Positions 1-9,205 of a DNA stretch of 64,000 nucleotides are shown here, piece by piece. The notes beneath the pieces were generated by a model, which ran no database searches, was not told where the DNA came from, and saw nothing but the letters and a program-made list of their open reading frames with translations. Position 1 is the first letter of the stretch. The number at the start of each line of letters is the position of its first letter. Origin of the DNA: an uncultured Puniceicoccaceae bacterium (GTDB taxonomy: Bacteria > Verrucomicrobiota > Verrucomicrobiia > Opitutales > Oceanipulchritudinaceae); contig CAWVVV010000002.1 of the NCBI GenBank assembly GCA_963933835.1, forward strand, positions 352,001 to 416,000, given 5' to 3'. Made by a program: the position numbers and the translations under genes.

Positions 1-281
1 TGCCGCTTTTTGTTCGTGTGAAAGGATTCGGACGCTTTGAGAAGGGGGCTTTTCTAGCCTCTGAAGTGGGACTTCAACGAGGACTCCGCGTGGAACGAAA
101 TCATCAGCTCTGGGAACAATATCTTCTCTCATATGCGGATATCGCGCCGGGGCACATTGACTGGACGGTCGATCAAGTGGAGCACGTCTTGAGTCCCGAA
201 CTGATCAATGAATTAGAAATCCTCATACAAGAGCGGACGGGTGAATCCTTTGAAATCGCATCGCGGGGAGGTATAGCGTGA
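1..281 (+). CDS. 3' end of a gene ending in a DtxR/MntR-type metal-binding/dimerisation domain, probably an ABC-3 permease-repressor fusion; truncated by window edge
   Basis: Frame open from window start; RNHQLWEQYL...DQVEHVLSPEL matches the DtxR RxHRLWE...EH pattern; stop overlaps start of next permease (GTGA). Confidence 0.7.
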   Translation, partial: PLFVRVKGFGRFEKGAFLASEVGLQRGLRVERNHQLWEQYLLSYADIAPGHIDWTVDQVEHVLSPELINELEILIQERTGESFEIASRGGIA

Positions 282-1600
282 TCGATTTTATTCCTGCACT
301 TGATCTGTTCCCCCTTATGGCTGCGCTGCTTGCAGCCCTTACCTGTGGACTGCTGGGGAACTTCCTCGTTCTCAGAAAGATCAGTTTGATGGGCGACGCG
401 ATCAGTCATTCGGTGCTGCCGGGGCTTGTTATTGCATTTTTGATTACATCAACGCGGAGTCCGATGATTATGTTTATTGGAGCGGCGGCGGCGGGACTCG
501 CGACGGTTGCTCTCGTCGAAGTAGTGAAAAAGCTAGGACGCGTCGAATCTGGTGCCGCGATGGGGGTGGTGTTTAGCATCCTCTTCGCTTTTGGCGTATT
601 GCTCATCGAGCAGGCGGCGGCGCGACATGTGGACCTCGATGCGGACTGTGTCTTGTATGGACAACTGGAAACGCTGGTGTGGTTTGAGGCTCCGCTGGAA
701 TTAGGGGCCTTGCTTTCGTTCGCGACGATCGAGGCGCTGCCTCGGCAAGTGATTGTGTTGTTTTCGATACTTACACTTTCGTTGGCATTCGTCGTGGTTT
801 TCTTCAAGGAACTCCGGGTGACGGCCTTCGACCCCGCGTTAGCGACGAGCCTAGGGATCAACGCGAATATGATGCACTACGGCTTGATGCTCTTCGTCGC
901 AGCGGCCACCGTCGCAGCTTTTGAAGCAGTGGGATCGATCCTTGTTATTGCGATGTTGGTTTGCCCCGGCGCGACGGCTCGGCTTTGGACCGATCGGCTT
1001 TCGCATCAGATTTTTGTAAGCTTGGCCTTTGCCACTGGAAGTGCGGTGACGGGTTATTTCGGAGCGACGACGATACCGTCTTGGTTCGATGCCGGGAGCG
1101 TGAATGCGGCGGGGAGCATGACGGTGGCAGCGGGAGGCTTTTTGGCCCTGTCAGTTTTCTTTGCTCCGCAGTATGGGCTAGTAGCGAAGCGTCTACGGGC
1201 GAAGCGGCTTCAACGTGATTCCGCGATGGATCAGCTCTTGGCTGGACTACTGCGTGCTCGAGAAAAAGGGGCGCACTGGATTGATCTGTGTGTCCTCACT
1301 CGGGCTTCGATGGGGTTTGATTTGGGGAGGGCAGCAATACGGGCAAAGCGGCTCGGCTATGTCGAGCGGCAAGCATTGGAGTTAAATCTGACAGCGCGCG
1401 GCCTCGAGGAAGCAAAAGCGATCCTGAGACGCCACCGCGGCTGGGAGAGCTATCTGGTTGATGATGCGGGCATCCGTCCAGACAATGTTCATGCGCTCGC
1501 CGAGCAGCTTGAACATATCTCAGTTGAGCCAACCGTTGCGAAGGAGTTGGACCCTCATGGGCAGCCTATTTACCCCCGTAAATCAGAGGATGATACATAG
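278..1600 (+). CDS. Mn/Zn/Fe ABC-3 permease with C-terminal DtxR-like domain
   Basis: LVLRKISLMGDAISHSVLPG and AFEAVGSILVIAML are ABC-3 permease motifs; C-terminal LTARG...RRHRGWESYL...HALAEQLEH...DPHGQPI is DtxR-like. Confidence 0.9.
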   Translation: MIDFIPALDLFPLMAALLAALTCGLLGNFLVLRKISLMGDAISHSVLPGLVIAFLITSTRSPMIMFIGAAAAGLATVALVEVVKKLGRVESGAAMGVVFSILFAFGVLLIEQAAARHVDLDADCVLYGQLETLVWFEAPLELGALLSFATIEALPRQVIVLFSILTLSLAFVVVFFKELRVTAFDPALATSLGINANMMHYGLMLFVAAATVAAFEAVGSILVIAMLVCPGATARLWTDRLSHQIFVSLAFATGSAVTGYFGATTIPSWFDAGSVNAAGSMTVAAGGFLALSVFFAPQYGLVAKRLRAKRLQRDSAMDQLLAGLLRAREKGAHWIDLCVLTRASMGFDLGRAAIRAKRLGYVERQALELNLTARGLEEAKAILRRHRGWESYLVDDAGIRPDNVHALAEQLEHISVEPTVAKELDPHGQPIYPRKSEDDT

Positions 1601-1615
1601 TTTGTAGGCGATTTC

Positions 1616-2461
1616 CTAATACGCCATGCCGATGCCGATGCGAAATTCATCGCCCCCGCCAAGACTAGAGTTCTGACGTTTCTCGTAGAGGTTGAAGTTG
1701 TATCCGACTTTGAAGAGAATGGTCTTATCGATCCACCAAAATAAGGCGGGCCCACCGCGTAGTCGGGTATAGCCAGATCCACCGTCATCGTAGTGGTGGT
1801 CGAAGTCGAATTCGAGGGTGACTTGGGTTGAGGTCGTCGGAATGAAGCCGATTTTGGCATCGGCATCAATCCGGTTGCCGCGATTGTCTGCGCCTTCCAG
1901 CCAGTAAGTGATCCCGCCTCCGATGATATAGTTGGGGGTTTCTCGTTTTGCGCTGATACCGATGCCCCAATCGGTCGAGCCATCGCTGAAGCCAATGGGG
2001 CTATCTTCGTCGCCGGTTGGCAGCTCGATGCGAGGATTTAGGGAGATGTTCCCCGAAAAACCTTTGCCGTTGTAGTATTTCCGGATCGGGAAGGCCAGTT
2101 TGAGGTTTCCAAAACCTTCGTCTGTCTGGGTGACGGCGGTGCCGTTCTCGATCGTGGTTTTCTCAGCTCGATGGTAAGGCAACGTTCCGACGATGCGGAG
2201 TGAGCGATCCCAGGTGTAGACACCTCCAAATTCAGCGGTGTGCAGGCTCGATGAGAGGCCCAGTGGATTGGCAATTGAATCGGTTCCATTCAGAATTTCA
2301 TCCGCGTCCTGCCATTTATAGAAGACCTGCCAGCCGTAGCCATAATCCCAGCGCGGGACCATGCTCATGACGGGGGTCTCGGCAAAGGTGGCGGGTGCGA
2401 CCAAGAGAGTGCCAAGGACAGCGACGAGCCATCCTCGAATACCGGAGCGCTTTCTCTTCAT
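1616..2461 (-). CDS. Putative outer-membrane beta-barrel/transporter protein
   Basis: N-terminal signal peptide, alternating aromatic beta-strands, GFGN and IELPTGD segments, C-terminal aromatic residue (IGIGMAY). Confidence 0.7.
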   Translation of the reverse strand: MKRKRSGIRGWLVAVLGTLLVAPATFAETPVMSMVPRWDYGYGWQVFYKWQDADEILNGTDSIANPLGLSSSLHTAEFGGVYTWDRSLRIVGTLPYHRAEKTTIENGTAVTQTDEGFGNLKLAFPIRKYYNGKGFSGNISLNPRIELPTGDEDSPIGFSDGSTDWGIGISAKRETPNYIIGGGITYWLEGADNRGNRIDADAKIGFIPTTSTQVTLEFDFDHHYDDGGSGYTRLRGGPALFWWIDKTILFKVGYNFNLYEKRQNSSLGGGDEFRIGIGMAY

Positions 2462-2464
2462 GCT

Positions 2465-3004
2465 CTAGAGGGTGGATGTGAGCTCAGCGATATAGCTCTG
2501 CGCCTTGAGGTCGCTCTGGCGAATTGAAATCAGCTGCTCGCTGGCGAGGTCGGTCGATTCGACGGTCAAGTTCAGCGGCGTATCGATGCCGGGCACAGTG
2601 TATTGCTCCCCTAGGAGTTCCCCGTCTTCGAGGAGGTAAATCGAGATGGGGTCGTAGCCGGCATCGCTGACTGCTTTGACAATCGCGCGCAGATCAATCG
2701 CTTCACCGGGTTCGCGGGCAAGAGTTAGGAACTGGGTATAGATGTCCATCTGCAGCCCTTTGTCGAAACGGCTGCGGTCGATGCCGTCGACTTTGCGCAG
2801 CTTGCGATTGATCCCGAATGCGCAGGTTTCGCAGATGAGACCTTTGACGCGCAATGCGACGGTGTTGTCTTCCGCTTGTAAGATCTCGGTGGCTTTGGCG
2901 GCCTCGATTTCAGGGGTGTAGGATTGTTCGACGGCGTCCGTCGGAGAGGCACTGAGCGCGCTCGCACAGAGGAGCGCGGTAAAAAGAAGGGTCTTAAAGT
3001 TCAT
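2465..3004 (-). CDS. Exported heavy-metal-associated (HMA) domain protein
   Basis: Start at MNFKTLLFTALLCASALSA (signal peptide); LRVKGLICETCAFGI has the HMA GxxCxxC motif; AVSDAGY end motif. Confidence 0.8.
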   Translation of the reverse strand: MNFKTLLFTALLCASALSASPTDAVEQSYTPEIEAAKATEILQAEDNTVALRVKGLICETCAFGINRKLRKVDGIDRSRFDKGLQMDIYTQFLTLAREPGEAIDLRAIVKAVSDAGYDPISIYLLEDGELLGEQYTVPGIDTPLNLTVESTDLASEQLISIRQSDLKAQSYIAELTSTL

Positions 3005-3113
3005 GATTTTGAGTATTTCGAAGTTAGAAAGTGTGTTGAAGAATTTGCATACAGCATTGGCGCTGTGCGATTTGCCGCGTGAAAGGTACACGGCTGAGTC
3101 GTCTTCTAGGTTT

Positions 3114-3581
3114 CTAGCTTCGAGGTGGAGGTGAATCCACTCCCTCAAATTGCTGCGGCGAGAGCACAGCTGAACTGTCGATAAGGGCGGCATCGCTTCC
3201 TTGAGCGAAGCTATGGCCTAAATCGTCGTTTAATTTGATGTGCGCGTGTGAGCTGGGCGCAGTCTCTGAAGGACCGCAACCGTGGCTGCATGCCCCCGTG
3301 TCGTGGCATGATTTGCCGGGGCAGTCGTTCGAACCATGGTCCTGATGAGCGTCTTCGCTCGGCTCTGGTTCTGAGTCGCTGCAGCAAGGATCTGCTTCGC
3401 AGCTATCTTGCACTATCACCGCTGTTCCCTGCTCATGGTCGCTTACAGGCAAGGTGTTCACGCTCCACGCGGGGAGGAAAACAAGGCTACTGCAAAGGAG
3501 GAAAACAAGGCTACTGCAAAGGAGGAAAACAAGGCTACTGCAAAGGAGGAAAACAAGGCTACTGCAAAGGAGGCGCATCAT
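3114..3581 (-). CDS. Cys/His-rich secreted small protein ending in PPPRS (candidate regulatory leader ORF)
   Basis: MMRLLCSSLVF... hydrophobic N-terminus, DCPGKSCHDTGACSHGC cluster, proline-rich C-terminus; co-oriented upstream of the HMA gene. Confidence 0.65.
   Translation of the reverse strand: MMRLLCSSLVFLLCSSLVFLLCSSLVFLLCSSLVFLPAWSVNTLPVSDHEQGTAVIVQDSCEADPCCSDSEPEPSEDAHQDHGSNDCPGKSCHDTGACSHGCGPSETAPSSHAHIKLNDDLGHSFAQGSDAALIDSSAVLSPQQFEGVDSPPPRS
3473..3573. repeat. Perfect 24-bp tandem repeat, 4 copies plus 5 bp (GGAGGAAAACAAGGCTACTGCAAA)
   Basis: Units at 3473-3496, 3497-3520, 3521-3544, 3545-3568; encodes LCSSLVFL repeats on the minus strand. Confidence 0.98.
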
Positions 3582-3698
3582 AGTGCTATAATGAAGAAGC
3601 ATAGGTTGCAGAGATTATTCCGCAAGCAAATCTTTTCACTGTATTAACTCGGGTGGTCGGCGCTTTGCTGAAGGCGCGTAGTTGTCGCACGGCGGCGC

Positions 3699-5465
3699 TT
3701 ACATTCTTTCGAGCGTTTCTAGGCCGAGAAGATGCAGTCCAGTTTCCAAAGTGAGGAGCGTTTGCGCGCATAGACTCAAGCGGCGGGCGCGAATCGCGGG
3801 GTCTTCAATCGAGACCCGATCTGCGGCGTAAAAGGTGCTGAAAAGCCCGGCCAACTCGAAGAGGTAAGTGCAGAGGTTGTGTGGACGGTAGTCGCCAAGT
3901 GCTTGTTCGAACGCAGATGGAAAGGCGACCAGTTTGCGTGCGAGTGCGATCTCGGTTTCGGTTTCAGGAGCGGAGGCCGCGCTGACAAAGTCGTCCGTCG
4001 GGCGCACCTCGAGCTTGCGGAAGATACTGTGGATCCGCGCGCCTGCGTAGAGCAGGTAAGGGGCGGTGTTGCCCTCAAGAGCGAGCATCTTGTCCCATGA
4101 GAATTGGTAATCGCTTGAGCGGTTTTGCGAGAGGTCGGCATAGCGCACGGCACCTATCCCAATGGCCTCGGCGACGCGGGATTGCTCTTCTTCGGCGAGT
4201 TCAGGATTTTTCTCCGAGACGATCGCGAGGGCTCGATTGTGAGCTTCTTCAAGGAGGGCTTTGAGCTTAACGTTATCGCCTTCCTTTGTTTTGAGGGGCT
4301 TTCCGTTGGGTCCGAGGATAGTGCCGTTGCTCACGTGCTTCAGCTTTGGAAGGGTCCATCCGCGCGCTTCAAACCACTTCTTCGTCGTGAGAAAAAGCTG
4401 TTCGAAGTGATCGCTTTGTCGCGAATCGACGCAGTAGAGGATATCGTCGGAGGCGAGTTCTTTGGCTCGGTAATAAATCGTTGCGAGGTCAGTCGTGGCG
4501 TAGTTCGACGCACCATCAGTCTTGCGGACAATGAAGGGCTGCTTCGCGAAACGCGGGTGCTCGGGGTGGAAGACGACAAGCGCGCCTTCACTTTTCTCTG
4601 AGAGTCCAGTTTCAGCCAACTCTTCGTAGATGTTGTCGACGCGGTCGCGGTAGAAGCTTTCACCCAGGGCGGTGTCGAATTTCACGCCAAGGCGATCGTA
4701 GTTGCTCTCGAAGGCATGCCAGCTGACTTCGGTGATCTTCTTCCAGATCGTAAGGTTCTCTTCGTCACCTTGCTGGAGTTTGACGAGTTCGTCGCGGACT
4801 TCCTGTGCGATTTCTGGGGAGCTTTTGTAGGCGGCATTGCCCTCTTTATAAAGTGCTTCGAGATCGGCGACGGGGTTTTCGTGTTCAGCATCGAGGTCGT
4901 GGCCACTTTTCTTCAGGGAGTAGATGATCATCCCGAACTGGGTGCCCCAGTCGCCGAGGTGATTATCGCGGGTCACTTCAGCGCCCGCATAGGTAAGCAT
5001 GCGTGCAAGGGCCTCGCCGATGACGGTCGAGCGGATGTGCCCAACGTGCATTTCCTTCGCCGTGTTGGGCGAGCTGTAGTCGACGACCGCTTTTAAGCCC
5101 TTTCGTAGCTGCGAAGAGTTTTGGGCGAAGGCATCAGCGGCGCCGAAGGCTTCGATCCACTTGAGCAGAAAGGTGGGTTGCAGACTGAAATTGAGAAAGC
5201 CCGGTCCAGCGATCGATACCGTAACGTAGTTTGGGTCGAGAGCGCCCGAGGCGACGACGGCGTCGAGGAGTTTTTGCCCGAGAGGTCGCGGTGGAACGCC
5301 GACCTTTTTTGCGACGCCGAGGATGCCATTGGCCTGAAAATCTCCGTGCCGCGGATCGGCGGCGCGGAGGATCGGGTCGAAGTCAGCGCCGAGCTCAGGT
5401 ATCGCTGCCGCCGCATCGACGATGACTCGTTGGAGAAAAACGGAGGGTTGATAGTCCACCTGCAT
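3699..5465 (-). CDS. argS: Arginine--tRNA ligase
   Basis: VDYSSPNTAKEMHVGHIRST (HIGH-like), HLGDWGTQFG, EGNTAPYLLY, terminal LERM. Confidence 0.97.
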   Translation of the reverse strand: MQVDYQPSVFLQRVIVDAAAAIPELGADFDPILRAADPRHGDFQANGILGVAKKVGVPPRPLGQKLLDAVVASGALDPNYVTVSIAGPGFLNFSLQPTFLLKWIEAFGAADAFAQNSSQLRKGLKAVVDYSSPNTAKEMHVGHIRSTVIGEALARMLTYAGAEVTRDNHLGDWGTQFGMIIYSLKKSGHDLDAEHENPVADLEALYKEGNAAYKSSPEIAQEVRDELVKLQQGDEENLTIWKKITEVSWHAFESNYDRLGVKFDTALGESFYRDRVDNIYEELAETGLSEKSEGALVVFHPEHPRFAKQPFIVRKTDGASNYATTDLATIYYRAKELASDDILYCVDSRQSDHFEQLFLTTKKWFEARGWTLPKLKHVSNGTILGPNGKPLKTKEGDNVKLKALLEEAHNRALAIVSEKNPELAEEEQSRVAEAIGIGAVRYADLSQNRSSDYQFSWDKMLALEGNTAPYLLYAGARIHSIFRKLEVRPTDDFVSAASAPETETEIALARKLVAFPSAFEQALGDYRPHNLCTYLFELAGLFSTFYAADRVSIEDPAIRARRLSLCAQTLLTLETGLHLLGLETLERM

Positions 5466-5683
5466 GGTCGAAGGACGCTGCGAAGGGGCGGGGGGCGAAT
5501 CAAGCTATTCGCGTGTTTCTGAGCAAAAATGACCGTTTTTGAGATTCGTTGCATCCGGCGAGGACGCGCCTAATCGGCTGCTCGAGCAATTTTTACTCGA
5601 CGGAGGCAACCTTAATCCGCTTATAGTTAAAAGTTTACGGATTCACCAACCCTCATCGGGTCTCACTCCGGATTATCTGCTCA

Positions 5684-7018
5684 ATGAGAAAAACAATAGT
5701 TTCTGTGCGTAAGTTCGTCAAGCCGTCCTACGCCTACTTAATAGAGAAAAAACGAGATGGAGGCGAGTTCTCGCATGACGAGATTCGCTACATCGTAGAC
5801 TCTATTTACGAAAAAGAACTGCCAAAACACCAATTGGCGGCACTCGTTATGGCGATCTATTTCCAGGGCATGAGTGCTCAGGAAACAGCCATCCTCGCTG
5901 AGGAAATGATGCTCTCCGGTGAAGTGGTTGATCTTTCGAAAATCACTAAGCCGAAGATCGACAAGTATTCGACCGGTGGCGTGGGTGACAAGACTTCGCT
6001 CGTGCTCATCCCACTCGCAGCAGCCTGTGGCGTCGTGATGCCAAACATGAATGGTGTCGACGAAGAGTTTGTTATTTCGAGCCTCGATAAGCTGAGCTCA
6101 ATCCCTGGATTCAGTCCGACGATGGACCTTGCGGGGTTTGTCAGTCAGCTCAGTACGGTTGGGGCAACGATCGCAGGTCAGTCGAGGGAAATTGCGCCCG
6201 TTGATACGGTGCTTTATGAGATGCGTCAGCTTACCGCGACGGTCCCAAGTTTACCACTCATCACCGGTTCGGTCCTCTCTCGTAAGCTCGCGCAAGGTGC
6301 TGAAGGCCTGGTCGTCGATGTGAAGTGGGGCAACGGGTCGTTCATCAAGGATGTTGAGCAAGCGAAGCAACTTGCCCGTTCCCTAACGCGAGTCGGTCGC
6401 TCGATGGACCGCCGCTGTGTGGCACTTGTTACCGATATGAACCAGCCGCTCGGCGACACCGTCGGCACAGGGTTGGAAATCATTGAAGCGATCAAATTAC
6501 TCAAGGGTGAAGGTCCTGAGGATCTTCAGGAGCTAGTGCTGAAGCTAGGTATGGAAATCGTTCGTCTGGCCGGTGTGGCTGGTTCAACGCTCTCTGCAAA
6601 GCAGACAGTCCAGCGCGCCCTCAAGGATGGAGCTGCATTTGAGAAATTTAAGGAAATGGTCGCTGCCCAAGGCGGAAAGACCGCTTGTCTCGATGATACG
6701 AGCAAGTTCCCAGAAGCGAAATACGTTCGTAAGCTTCCTGCACCGAAGCGTGGCTACGTCCACACGATCAATGCGGGTATGATTGCTCGCGGCGTTCAGA
6801 TGCTCGCCCAGAAGGGCGGTAAGAAGCTCGACCCAGCCGTCGGCGTATCCGAAATCAAGAAAGTCGGGACTCAAGTGAAACAAGGTGAGCCGCTCATGAT
6901 GATTCACTACAACGACGAATCGAAGCTTGAGACTGCGCTCGACTACTTGCGTCAGGCCTACCGCCTCGCACCGAAGCGCCCAACACCGCCAGATCTCCTC
7001 GTTGAGCGTGTGGCCTAA
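5684..7018 (+). CDS. Thymidine/pyrimidine-nucleoside phosphorylase family protein with divergent active site
   Basis: IEKKRDG, DKYSTGGVGDK, LDKLSSIPGF, DVKWGNGSF, TDMNQPLG motifs; phosphate loop is non-canonical. Confidence 0.9.
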   Translation: MRKTIVSVRKFVKPSYAYLIEKKRDGGEFSHDEIRYIVDSIYEKELPKHQLAALVMAIYFQGMSAQETAILAEEMMLSGEVVDLSKITKPKIDKYSTGGVGDKTSLVLIPLAAACGVVMPNMNGVDEEFVISSLDKLSSIPGFSPTMDLAGFVSQLSTVGATIAGQSREIAPVDTVLYEMRQLTATVPSLPLITGSVLSRKLAQGAEGLVVDVKWGNGSFIKDVEQAKQLARSLTRVGRSMDRRCVALVTDMNQPLGDTVGTGLEIIEAIKLLKGEGPEDLQELVLKLGMEIVRLAGVAGSTLSAKQTVQRALKDGAAFEKFKEMVAAQGGKTACLDDTSKFPEAKYVRKLPAPKRGYVHTINAGMIARGVQMLAQKGGKKLDPAVGVSEIKKVGTQVKQGEPLMMIHYNDESKLETALDYLRQAYRLAPKRPTPPDLLVERVA

Positions 7019-7045
7019 GGGGTTCTAACGAACCATCAGTTTTAT

Positions 7046-7091
7046 AAACAAAGACGCCCCGGACTTGAAGGTCCGGGGCGTCTTTTGTTTT
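7046..7091. terminator. Bidirectional intrinsic terminator
   Basis: 15-bp perfect stem AAAGACGCCCCGGAC / GTCCGGGGCGTCTTT, loop TTGAAG, A/T tracts on both sides, between convergent genes. Confidence 0.9.
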
Positions 7092-7111
7092 AAAGGATTG
7101 AAGGGGTGTCT

Positions 7112-7669
7112 TTAGACGCGGCCGAGGTAGCTTTTGTCTTCGGTCGATACCTTGATTTTGTCGCCCGTCTTGATAAAGAGCGGGGTCTGAACGACGAGGC
7201 CCGTCGCGGTGGTTACAGGCTTGAGGGCAGCGCCGGAGGTATCACCCCGGAGAGCAGCAGGCGCTTCGGTCACTTCCATTTCAACGGAGACTGGTAGTTG
7301 AATCTGGACAGGATTATCATCGACGAAGAGGACGTCGACGGGGTTGCCCTCATCGAGAAAGTCTTTCGCCTCTTCGACGAGATTTTCGGCAAGGATGACA
7401 TCTTCGAACGTCTCAGGGTCCATGAAGTGGTAGCCCATGTCGTCGATGTAACTGAACTCGAGACGCTTTGTGTCTGTCGTAAGAATATCGACCGTTTCGG
7501 TGGAGCGAATCTTCTGCGTCGTGCTCGAACCGGAATTGAGGTTGCGCATATTGACCTGAACAAAACCAGCTTGGCGGCCTTGCGACCGTTGTTGGGCATC
7601 GAGAACGAGATGCGGCTGTTTGTTGTAGAGGATTACATTCCCTTTTCGGATTTCAGTCGGAGTAGCCAT
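7112..7669 (-). CDS. efp: Translation elongation factor P
   Basis: FMDPETFE, LRGDTSG, KPVTTATGLVVQTPLFIKTGDKIKVST...YLGRV. Confidence 0.95.
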   Translation of the reverse strand: MATPTEIRKGNVILYNKQPHLVLDAQQRSQGRQAGFVQVNMRNLNSGSSTTQKIRSTETVDILTTDTKRLEFSYIDDMGYHFMDPETFEDVILAENLVEEAKDFLDEGNPVDVLFVDDNPVQIQLPVSVEMEVTEAPAALRGDTSGAALKPVTTATGLVVQTPLFIKTGDKIKVSTEDKSYLGRV

Positions 7670-7837
7670 GCTGGGTGTTAGTTAACGCGATCTTTGGATG
7701 ATGGGCGGAAACGGGTCAATCGGTTTGTTACAAGGCTGTTCAACTAGAGCGTGGGCAATGGGGAATGCCCTTTACAGGGGAAACGTGCCCGATCTATATC
7801 GTAATGCTTGATCGGCGTCCCAGTCGGCCCCCTTGGT

Positions 7838-9205
7838 ATGAAACAAAGAACAATCTTAAGCGAGGTATCTACCCATGGTAAATCGCTCCATACCGGCAAA
7901 GAAGTCCACCTCACTCTAAAGCCCGCTGAAATAGGCGCTGGCATCGTTTTTCGCCGTGTTGATCTCTTTGGAAAACCCGAGGTAAAGCCTGCCATCGAAC
8001 TCGTTAATAATGAGCTCGTTCGCAGCACTGACATCACTTCTGGCCACACGCAGCTGAAGACGATCGAGCACGTTCTCAGCGCTCTCTCCGGCTGTGGGGT
8101 CGACAACTGTATCGTCGAAATGGATTCGGCGGAGCCACCCATTGTGGACGGTTCTTCTCGCCAGTTTGTCGAGATGATCGAAAAGGCCGAGCCCGTCGAA
8201 CAGGATGCCGACCGCGAATACTTCGAATTGAAGGAGCCGATCTCGATCATGGACGGCAACCGCTCGATCATCGCGCTGCCCTACGATGGTCTGAGGATTA
8301 CTTGCACGAGTGCGGATGATCGCGGCACACATACGCAGCACCTTTCGCTCGATGTGGATCCAGTTGTCTACAAGTCAGACATCGCCCACGCTCGTACCTT
8401 TACTGTCTACGAGGACATCGAACCTCTGCTCAAGATGGGTAAGATTCAGGGCGGTAGCCTAGATTCTGCGATCGTGATCAAAGGCGATCAGATCCTCTCG
8501 AAAGAGCCGCTGCGCTATAAGGACGAATTTGTCCGCCACAAGATTCTCGATGTCATTGGCGACATTACACTACTCGGCAAACCGCTGAAGGCCCACATTG
8601 TAGCGGTTCGCACGGGCCACAAGCTCAACGCCGAACTGACCAAGGCAATGTATCAGCAGATGCTCGCTGCCGAGGGCAGTAAAAAAGCTAAGAAGGCAAA
8701 AGCGACGACCAAGGCGTCGACCGCAAAGGAGCGCAAAACACTGCGACCCGACGAGACGACGATCGATATTCGCCGGATCCTCGACATCCTGCCGCACGCT
8801 TATCCCTTTGTTCTGATCGATCGAATCACAGAGTTTGTTAAAGACGACGAGCTCACCGCGATTAAGAATGTAACGATCAATGAACCGTTTTTCCAAGGGC
8901 ACTTCCCCGGGAACCCAGTGATGCCGGGCGTGCTTCAGCTCGAGTCGATGGCTCAGGCGTCGGGCTTTCTTATGCTTCGCCGTATATCAAGTGAGGGCAA
9001 AGTCGCCTTTTTTATGAGTGCGGACAACGTGAAATTCCGCCGTGCGGTTGTGCCTGGTGATCAATTGGAGATTCACGCGAAGATCACAAAGAACCGCGCA
9101 AATAAATTCATCGGCGCGAGCGTTAAATGCACCGTTGATGGTAAAATTGTTTCCTCTGGCGAACTCAGCTTCGTCATCCTCGACGTGCCGGAAGAAGGGA
9201 TGTAG
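7838..9205 (+). CDS. lpxC: Bifunctional LpxC deacetylase / FabZ dehydratase
   Basis: MKQRT start, TIEHVLSAL and [10 protein letters not shown] (LpxC zinc motifs); LPHAYPF and [18 protein letters not shown] (FabZ). Confidence 0.95.

Follow-up and report, generated by a model that had tools for sequence, protein, structure and literature searches.

The closest described counterparts of the locus analysed here are CutF of Rhodobacter capsulatus and CruR of Bordetella pertussis. In the accessible part of one preprint (bioRxiv 10.1101/2025.02.05.636593), CutF has the tail P109-EPEGPPPRL-118; CutO is raised both by Cu and by loss of EF-P, and a PPP-to-PAP change abolishes the induction by Cu. The available portion of a second report describes CutF as acting only in cis and as being degraded after export, and counts 5,334 proteins as CutF-like on the basis of rule-based searches (PMC9973294). 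CruR is characterised by a CxxC motif, a RAPP tail and the involvement of Rho (PMC9426467). Outer-membrane barrels of the COG4313 family are also relevant: the accessible text of PMC4493636 implicates this family in the uptake of hydrophobic molecules rather than metals, and in Pput2725 the lumen is plugged by the first 14 residues.

We analysed a window of 64,000 nucleotides from an uncultured Puniceicoccaceae bacterium, in which an ORF scan places three ORFs on the minus strand: a leader (3114-3581), an HMA gene (2465-3004) and a gene for an outer-membrane barrel (1616-2461). The gap between leader and HMA gene is 109 nt and the barrel gene follows the HMA gene after 3 nt, in agreement with the three co-oriented genes and the gap length given in a preliminary description of this DNA. 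We consider the leader to be probably a CutF-like nascent-chain sensor that acts as a metal-ON translational switch for the HMA protein and the barrel, because it ends in PPPRS and because its final codons show complementarity to the sequence ahead of the HMA start. The features on which this reading draws are as follows.

3114-3581, minus strand: leader ORF, 155 aa from the ATG at 3581, with alternative ATGs at 3602 and 3578
3473-3573, minus strand: perfect in-frame 24-bp tandem repeat (LLCSSLVF x 4.2), which lengthens the signal-like region
3276-3323, minus strand: Cys/His cluster CPGKSCHDTGACSHGC with CxxxC (3276-3290), the predicted metal sensor
3114-3131, minus strand: PPPRS-TAG, the predicted pause site, of the same form as the CutF tail PPPRL
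3111-3123, minus strand: 5' arm of the predicted gating helix, from the last Pro codon to the stop codon (RNA fold)
3074-3094, minus strand: first of two hairpins enclosed by the multiloop, 7 bp (RNA fold)
3047-3068, minus strand: second enclosed hairpin, 7 bp and bulged (RNA fold)
3005-3046, minus strand: G-poor HMA initiation region (1 G in 42 nt), which includes the helix's 3' arm (3018-3030)
2465-3004, minus strand: exported-type HMA protein (GLICETC) of MerP/CopZ fold, extended by one more helix at the N-terminus
1616-2461, minus strand: outer-membrane barrel of COG4313/Pput2725 fold with a Met-rich N-terminal segment (PVMSMVPRW)

The leader is composed of a hydrophobic N-terminus, an acidic Cys/His-rich middle and the PPPRS end; it carries DCPGKSCHDTGACSHGC, and the 162-aa form contains 11 Cys and 9 His. 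The signal-like N-terminus, Cys cluster, several His and GVDSPPPRS-stop (here GVDSPPPRS-TAG) that had been described are all present, and the N-terminus passes a hydropathy filter, the sole signal-peptide check that was run. The Cys/His cluster sits 49 residues before the first terminal Pro, and its CxxxC (C98-S-H-G-C102) is invariant in the relative P0002. PPP occupies residues 151-153 of 155; 3 of 1127 long ORFs have PPP among their last 6 residues. The preliminary description had regarded this end as a non-RAPP arrest motif; that it is a new motif we reject because CutF itself ends PEGPPPRL, so that PPPR-x-stop is CutF's own tail. By the rules set out in the accessible text of PMC9973294, the leader has PP in its last 15 residues, a Cys/His metal motif (CxxxC) and a same-strand next gene at a gap below 1000 nt (109 nt); its length of 154-162 aa with four repeats is borderline relative to the limit of 150 aa because of the 24-bp repeat, the two-copy protein P0001 having 146 aa and P0002 131 aa.

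Among 4583 candidates there was one independent relative of the leader, P0002, which is 44-46% identical and keeps both CPGKSCHDxGACSHGCGPS and VDSPPPRS with zero indels between the two. No Pfam or NCBIfam family matched the leader above cut-off, and a leader profile run over 401 genomes across the order returned, besides the leader itself, 7 weak matches (E 0.003-0.01) that were noise on inspection. Searches for DNA around close leader relatives yielded 1 unrelated locus from genome contigs and none from metagenome contigs (2 scans) or viral contigs. The profile searches that the preliminary description had proposed, against DUF2946, DUF6660 and CzcI, gave no match: DUF2946/PF11162 matched neither the leader, nor P0002, nor the locus in a whole-genome search, and neither DUF6660, CzcI nor CopL was matched in Pfam or NCBIfam, with the CzcI model PF28244 perhaps outside the Pfam set searched. 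By profile, the leader is not a DUF2946 member, and it has CxxxC and PPPRS rather than that family's CxxC and C-terminal RAPP. As a lead only, the ESM Atlas neighbours of P0002 include a cluster that bears the name DUF2946 (0.96), as well as clusters of CzcI and of DUF6660 (0.94).

Most of the 'signal-like' N-terminus of the leader is made up of the 24-bp repeat, which had been overlooked earlier and whose 24-mer is unique to this site within the genome. Copy number differs between data sets: P0001, drawn from other assemblies, has two copies; one contig of run X10 skips 48 bp of the repeat; and in run X4 a 53-bp piece has depth 8, a 31-bp piece depth 4 and the flanks 3-4, depths that would fit three copies. 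The four-copy protein is absent from a collection of 15 billion under any of three starts, so the count of four could reflect either a true allele or the assembly. The frame of the leader is kept at any copy number, and the repeat most likely reflects tolerated slippage.

The two spacer hairpins of the preliminary description (3074-3094 and 3047-3068) were recovered in the MFE structure and again in the centroid. For the 201-nt fold z is -2.89, and 3 of 200 shuffles fold equally well. What had been overlooked is a helix that closes the multiloop around both hairpins. Its arms (3111-3123 and 3018-3030) are a 13-nt inverted repeat with 92% complementarity, and it connects the end of the leader, from its last Pro codon through those for Arg and Ser to the stop, with positions -26..-14 relative to the HMA start, the start codon itself being outside. 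The fold windows were picked after the first fold, so the pairing and accessibility figures are not blind, and with this reservation the pairing between the leader end and the HMA start region amounts to 11.7 expected bp, a value reached in 0 of 40 shuffles and, among 139 ordinary co-oriented gene pairs that the genome has with 60-140-nt gaps (median 0.5), in 5. On the same footing, omission of the leader end from the fold lifts the unpaired fraction at -25..-9 to 0.73, compared with 0.32 when it is included, and a footprint mask gives a modest rise in the accessibility of -25..+3, from 0.46 to 0.59 (1 of 40 shuffles as high). The -30..+15 window of the HMA gene alone has no structure. The helix contains the stop codon, and therefore every terminating ribosome would open it.

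The region before the HMA start had also been described as nearly free of G and lacking a Shine-Dalgarno (SD) sequence, of which the first part is unusual and the second is not. The 42 nt upstream of the HMA ATG contain 1 G, and no more than 1 G is found at 4 of 370 confident starts of the genome; G depletion before starts is itself genome-wide. An SD-like word at -16..-5 precedes 30 of the 370 starts, versus 14 in a control window, as scored without the genome's own anti-SD, the 16S 3' end being absent from the assembly. Since SD-less starts are normal in this genome, the lack of one carries no particular significance at this site and was discarded as a regulatory sign. The accessible text of PMC10783764 describes some Verrucomicrobia as SD-scarce.

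Fold predictions uphold the earlier labels of both cargo proteins. The HMA protein matches PF00403 (E 0.0046) and MerP (E 1e-7), both under cut-off; its model (pLDDT 80) has MerP 1OSD as the best fold match, and G-x-x-C-x-x-C is invariant across 38 sequences. The barrel model (pLDDT 96) aligns with 4RL8 by Foldseek (E 2e-9, TM 0.78) and by profile (E 3e-4). Its Pfam score of 19.6 bits is below the gathering cut-off of 22 for PF13557, a family matched by 15 of 61 barrel relatives at E≤0.01 (best 3e-10). An N-terminal segment lies ahead of strand 1, as in COG4313/PF13557 barrels, and Met is found at barrel positions 5, 7 and 8 in 46/59, 42/59 and 40/60 rows, respectively. This segment is predicted to plug the lumen, and its richness in Met suggests a soft-metal path. 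The family is small, with 112 representatives among 1.84 billion at E≤0.001. No HMA-barrel fusion was demonstrated among 123 proteins; two of them (P0101 and P0034) match both profiles and may be mis-called overlaps. Neither merT/merA nor copA was seen beside the HMA gene in the ORF lists, and literature outside the subscription journals yielded nothing on an HMA-barrel cassette or on WRL-ending leaders.

The operon is convergent with an ABC-3 permease/DtxR-C fusion that ends at 1600, and a C-terminal PF02742 (DtxR/Fe_dep_repr_C) domain is present on both ABC-3 permeases (window 3-281 and 278-1600, plus strand). Convergence on an ABC-3 importer, as described earlier, thus holds at this locus; in the ORF lists of relatives no ABC-3 gene was seen next to the barrel (by eye, ~1.5-kb flanks). 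RNA run X8 has contigs over 1688-3550 with gaps, one of which spans 2470-3502, and none in the flanks; as a single run seen as contigs only, it says nothing on one transcript or on levels. Run X16, of which a small share was covered, gave just two short near-identical pieces. A promoter and terminator scan of 1500-3800 found 1 and 1 sites, where 1.1 and 2.3 were to be expected, and neither is on the strand of the operon. An Rfam scan of 1-8000 gave a single sub-threshold match at 7048-7154 and nothing in the operon, and a riboswitch or known RNA as operon control was rejected accordingly. The sole efp gene of the genome lies at window 7112-7669 (minus strand), 3.5 kb from the leader, and encodes the loop RSQGRQAG, where the usual EF-P loop is PGKG; at 7808-9205 (plus strand) is an apparent LpxC-FabZ fusion, judged by eye.

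Two more leaders of like design are present in the genome, with the ends GPPPRLA and RAPPIESVVTA and an end-to-start pairing of 9.0 and 13.0 expected bp. The former (contig C2, 347720-348109, minus strand; CGYC ... GPPPRLA-stop) lies 142 nt upstream of a PF13557-like barrel of 365 aa that is rich in His and Met, and this leader and barrel (C2, 346480-348109) are ~4 kb before the window start. With a ZnuA-type ABC operon between them, the GPPPRLA and PPPRS cassettes form a ~9-kb metal locus. The RAPP-type leader (contig C3, 276093-276491, plus strand) precedes a TonB-dependent receptor by 79 nt.

The barrel did not turn up in 36 further genomes from the family, but is present in 43 of 400 genomes of the order and in 17 of 400 of a phylum sample, 3 of them outside the order. 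We examined 49 distinct barrel loci, leaving out one weak match (G234), and found the HMA gene directly upstream of the barrel in 48. Eight loci were unscorable (7 too short or masked, 1 without the HMA gene); in the 41 others the head of the cassette is a Cys-rich signal-bearing ORF at 12, a MerR-family gene at 2 and nothing recognisable at 27. Both MerR-family regulators (L047, 1321-1725, where the barrel is split by a frameshift, and L096, 743-1072) stand directly before the HMA-barrel pair in place of the leader; ZntR, CueR and MerR models score them alike, all under cut-off, and the complete protein has three Cys, which we take to be a divalent-metal pattern. A comparison of L005, L014, L021 and L038 with L006, L008 and L027 shows that, within one family, some genera have the order sigma factor, leader, HMA gene, barrel, and genus g48 has sigma factor, HMA gene, barrel without the leader; this suggests that a leader was lost or gained there at a fixed site. 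Barrel copies broken by stop codons or frameshifts (L099, L098 and L036) suggest that the cassette often decays.

The 12 leaders of these relatives are 15-24% identical to the first row of their alignment and matched no Pfam family, and homology with the PPPRS leader was undetected (hhalign probability 8%). Conservation of the terminal prolines among syntenic homologs, on which the preliminary description had staked its reading, is seen in part: PPPRS is kept in the sole relative P0002, whose neighbours were not seen, but 0 of the 12 syntenic leaders end PPPR and at 27 of 41 scorable loci no head can be recognised, while PP does occur within the last 16 residues in 8 of 12. Seven end WRL and the rest WLM, VRLL, VCLL or FLI (2), with a TGA stop in 11 of 12; the tails of the family can be written [CGS][VI]WRL, CxLL or FLI, mostly before UGA. 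The last Cys cluster is 63-67 residues from the end in all 12, and 46-53 residues ahead of PP in the 8 that have it. Pairing between leader end and HMA start is at least 11 bp in 5 and below 11 bp in 7 (some of the 12 are close kin), and the change in accessibility is at most 0.02, or is a drop, in 4 of 12. The profile of these leaders found 10 further ORFs elsewhere, with ends such as CVYRI, CVRRL and CVYLL; downstream of the 2 that were scanned are OEP and CusB/HMBD efflux proteins. Loci L074-L083 carry Cys-rich exported-type ORFs that end CVYRI, CVRRL, CVYLI or CVYLL (at ~1440-1910 of each oriented locus). TGA is the stop in 9 of the 10, several lack PP, and the genes that come next are TolC/CusB-like; these ORFs are a candidate proline-independent arrest family.

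In the CutF-like reading, which we favour, the hydrophobic N-terminus would send the nascent chain through SecY, and when the ribosome reaches PPP the Cys/His cluster, at its observed distance of 49 residues upstream, would be newly out in the periplasm. Metal binding there would prolong the PPP pause against EF-P, by analogy with CutF, and the paused ribosome, covering 3111-3123, is predicted to free the G-poor, SD-less initiation region. The barrel would then be translated by coupling to the HMA gene 3 nt ahead. Thus, high periplasmic metal would turn on translation of the HMA protein and the barrel, and this cargo likely acts on a soft metal in the envelope, by buffering or by removal. The metal is somewhat more probably copper than not; zinc, cadmium or mercury is possible, if short of an even chance. 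MerR-type sensors activate on metal, and the MerR-family heads and efflux contexts, taken as annotated, would point to induction by metal.

The helix could also work without a sensor. Since it includes the stop codon, any terminating ribosome would open it, tying HMA translation simply to completion of the first gene, whose product would be an exported metal-binding or buffering peptide with no regulated pause. The 11 Cys and 9 His of the leader agree with such a product, as does a cargo that has no recognisable head at 27 of 41 scorable loci; we nevertheless hold this account to be unlikely, since PPPRS-stop and the 49-residue spacing are exact in P0002 while the remainder has diverged to ~45%, and CutF, in the accessible part of PMC9973294, acts only in cis and is degraded after export. 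Chance or decay of the ORF, with the repeat as an assembly artefact, is highly improbable. The missing four-copy protein (15-billion collection, three starts) and a GC3 of 0.57, compared to 0.65-0.72 in three neighbours, are in line with it, but P0002 conserves the frame, the Cys cluster and the tail, the recognition score is 2512, and the repeat is in frame at any copy number, with two copies in independent data; for the ORF itself this explanation is largely refuted.

The sign of the response might instead be the opposite one, as in CruR: a default pause would shield the RNA from Rho, metal would free the ribosome, Rho would terminate transcription in the C-rich, G-poor spacer, and the barrel would be a metal-repressed uptake channel. 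Two rho-like genes are present in the 1.9-Mb genome (contig C1, 47802-49205, and contig C4, 195938-196990; one in a 725-codon frame), both under cut-off. C exceeds G by 10-15 per 78 nt in the spacer and HMA start (~90th-98th percentile), and COG4313 proteins are described as uptake channels in the accessible text of PMC4493636. However, the leader tail is of the CutF type, PPPR and not RAPP, the excess of C over G is weak in the last half of the leader, G depletion before starts is genome-wide, and the MerR-family and efflux contexts favour induction by metal; we regard this sign as decidedly unlikely. A broader proposal, which is tentative and rather doubtful as a whole, is that the HMA protein and the Met-plugged COG4313 barrel are a dedicated soft-metal channel with swapped heads (a PPPR leader, two MerR genes and an unrelated leader family at 12 loci), that this leader family, with its Cys cluster 63-67 residues before its conserved tail, would pause at termination and not at prolines as a second arrest chemistry, and that 24-bp slippage may tune the sensor between strains.

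If the CutF-like reading is true, the CutF mechanism reaches a lineage that mostly starts translation without an SD, in which case the gate must hide an A/U-rich landing zone, and a barrel family known for hydrophobic-solute uptake is tied to metal handling. Swapped heads on one cassette would be a natural test of the tail chemistries that couple periplasmic metal to ribosome pausing. The CutF mechanism itself is already published and, as far as the accessible text of PMC9973294 goes, CutF-like proteins have been catalogued by rule; its cluster lists may already include such proteins. What remains of note is the HMA-barrel cassette itself, the exchange of its heads, the family of WRL-UGA leaders and the repeat of variable copy number in the signal region.

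The analogy with CutF and CruR drawn in the preliminary description is supported by the CxxxC, by PPPR at the end of a leader whose N-terminus is hydrophobic, by the predicted helix that reaches the start region of the following gene and by the metal-binding cargo. Like CutF in R. capsulatus cutFOG, the leader is the first gene of its operon, with a signal-like N-terminus, CxxxC, PPPR-x-stop, a predicted RNA helix over the initiation region of the next gene and an exported metal-handling cargo. The distance from sensor to PPP is 49 residues, versus ~41 in CutF as computed from the papers' numbering. The locus differs from that of CutF in that its cargo genes encode an HMA protein with a COG4313-fold barrel instead of a multicopper oxidase and a chaperone, the masked region has no SD, the signal region has a variable repeat and the leader has no DUF2946 match. 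With CruR (Bp2923; DUF2946/PF11162) it shares a Cys-motif upstream ORF with a proline tail, a long spacer and an outer-membrane transport gene, but CruR has CxxC and RAPP, is Rho-mediated and turns expression off in copper in the accessible part of PMC9426467, whereas the leader ends PPPRS and a predicted helix ties its stop to the next start region. The HMA protein resembles MerP/CopZ (PF00403) in its ferredoxin-like fold and CxxC, and MerP in its signal-like N-terminus, and differs in falling under all family cut-offs and in its extra N-terminal helix and long insertion. Similarly, the barrel shares with Pput2725 (PDB 4RL8; PF13557) the fold (TM 0.78) and a 14-residue N-terminal segment ahead of strand 1, but is ~9% identical to it, has a Met-rich N-terminal segment and belongs to a family with an HMA neighbour in 48 of 49 loci.
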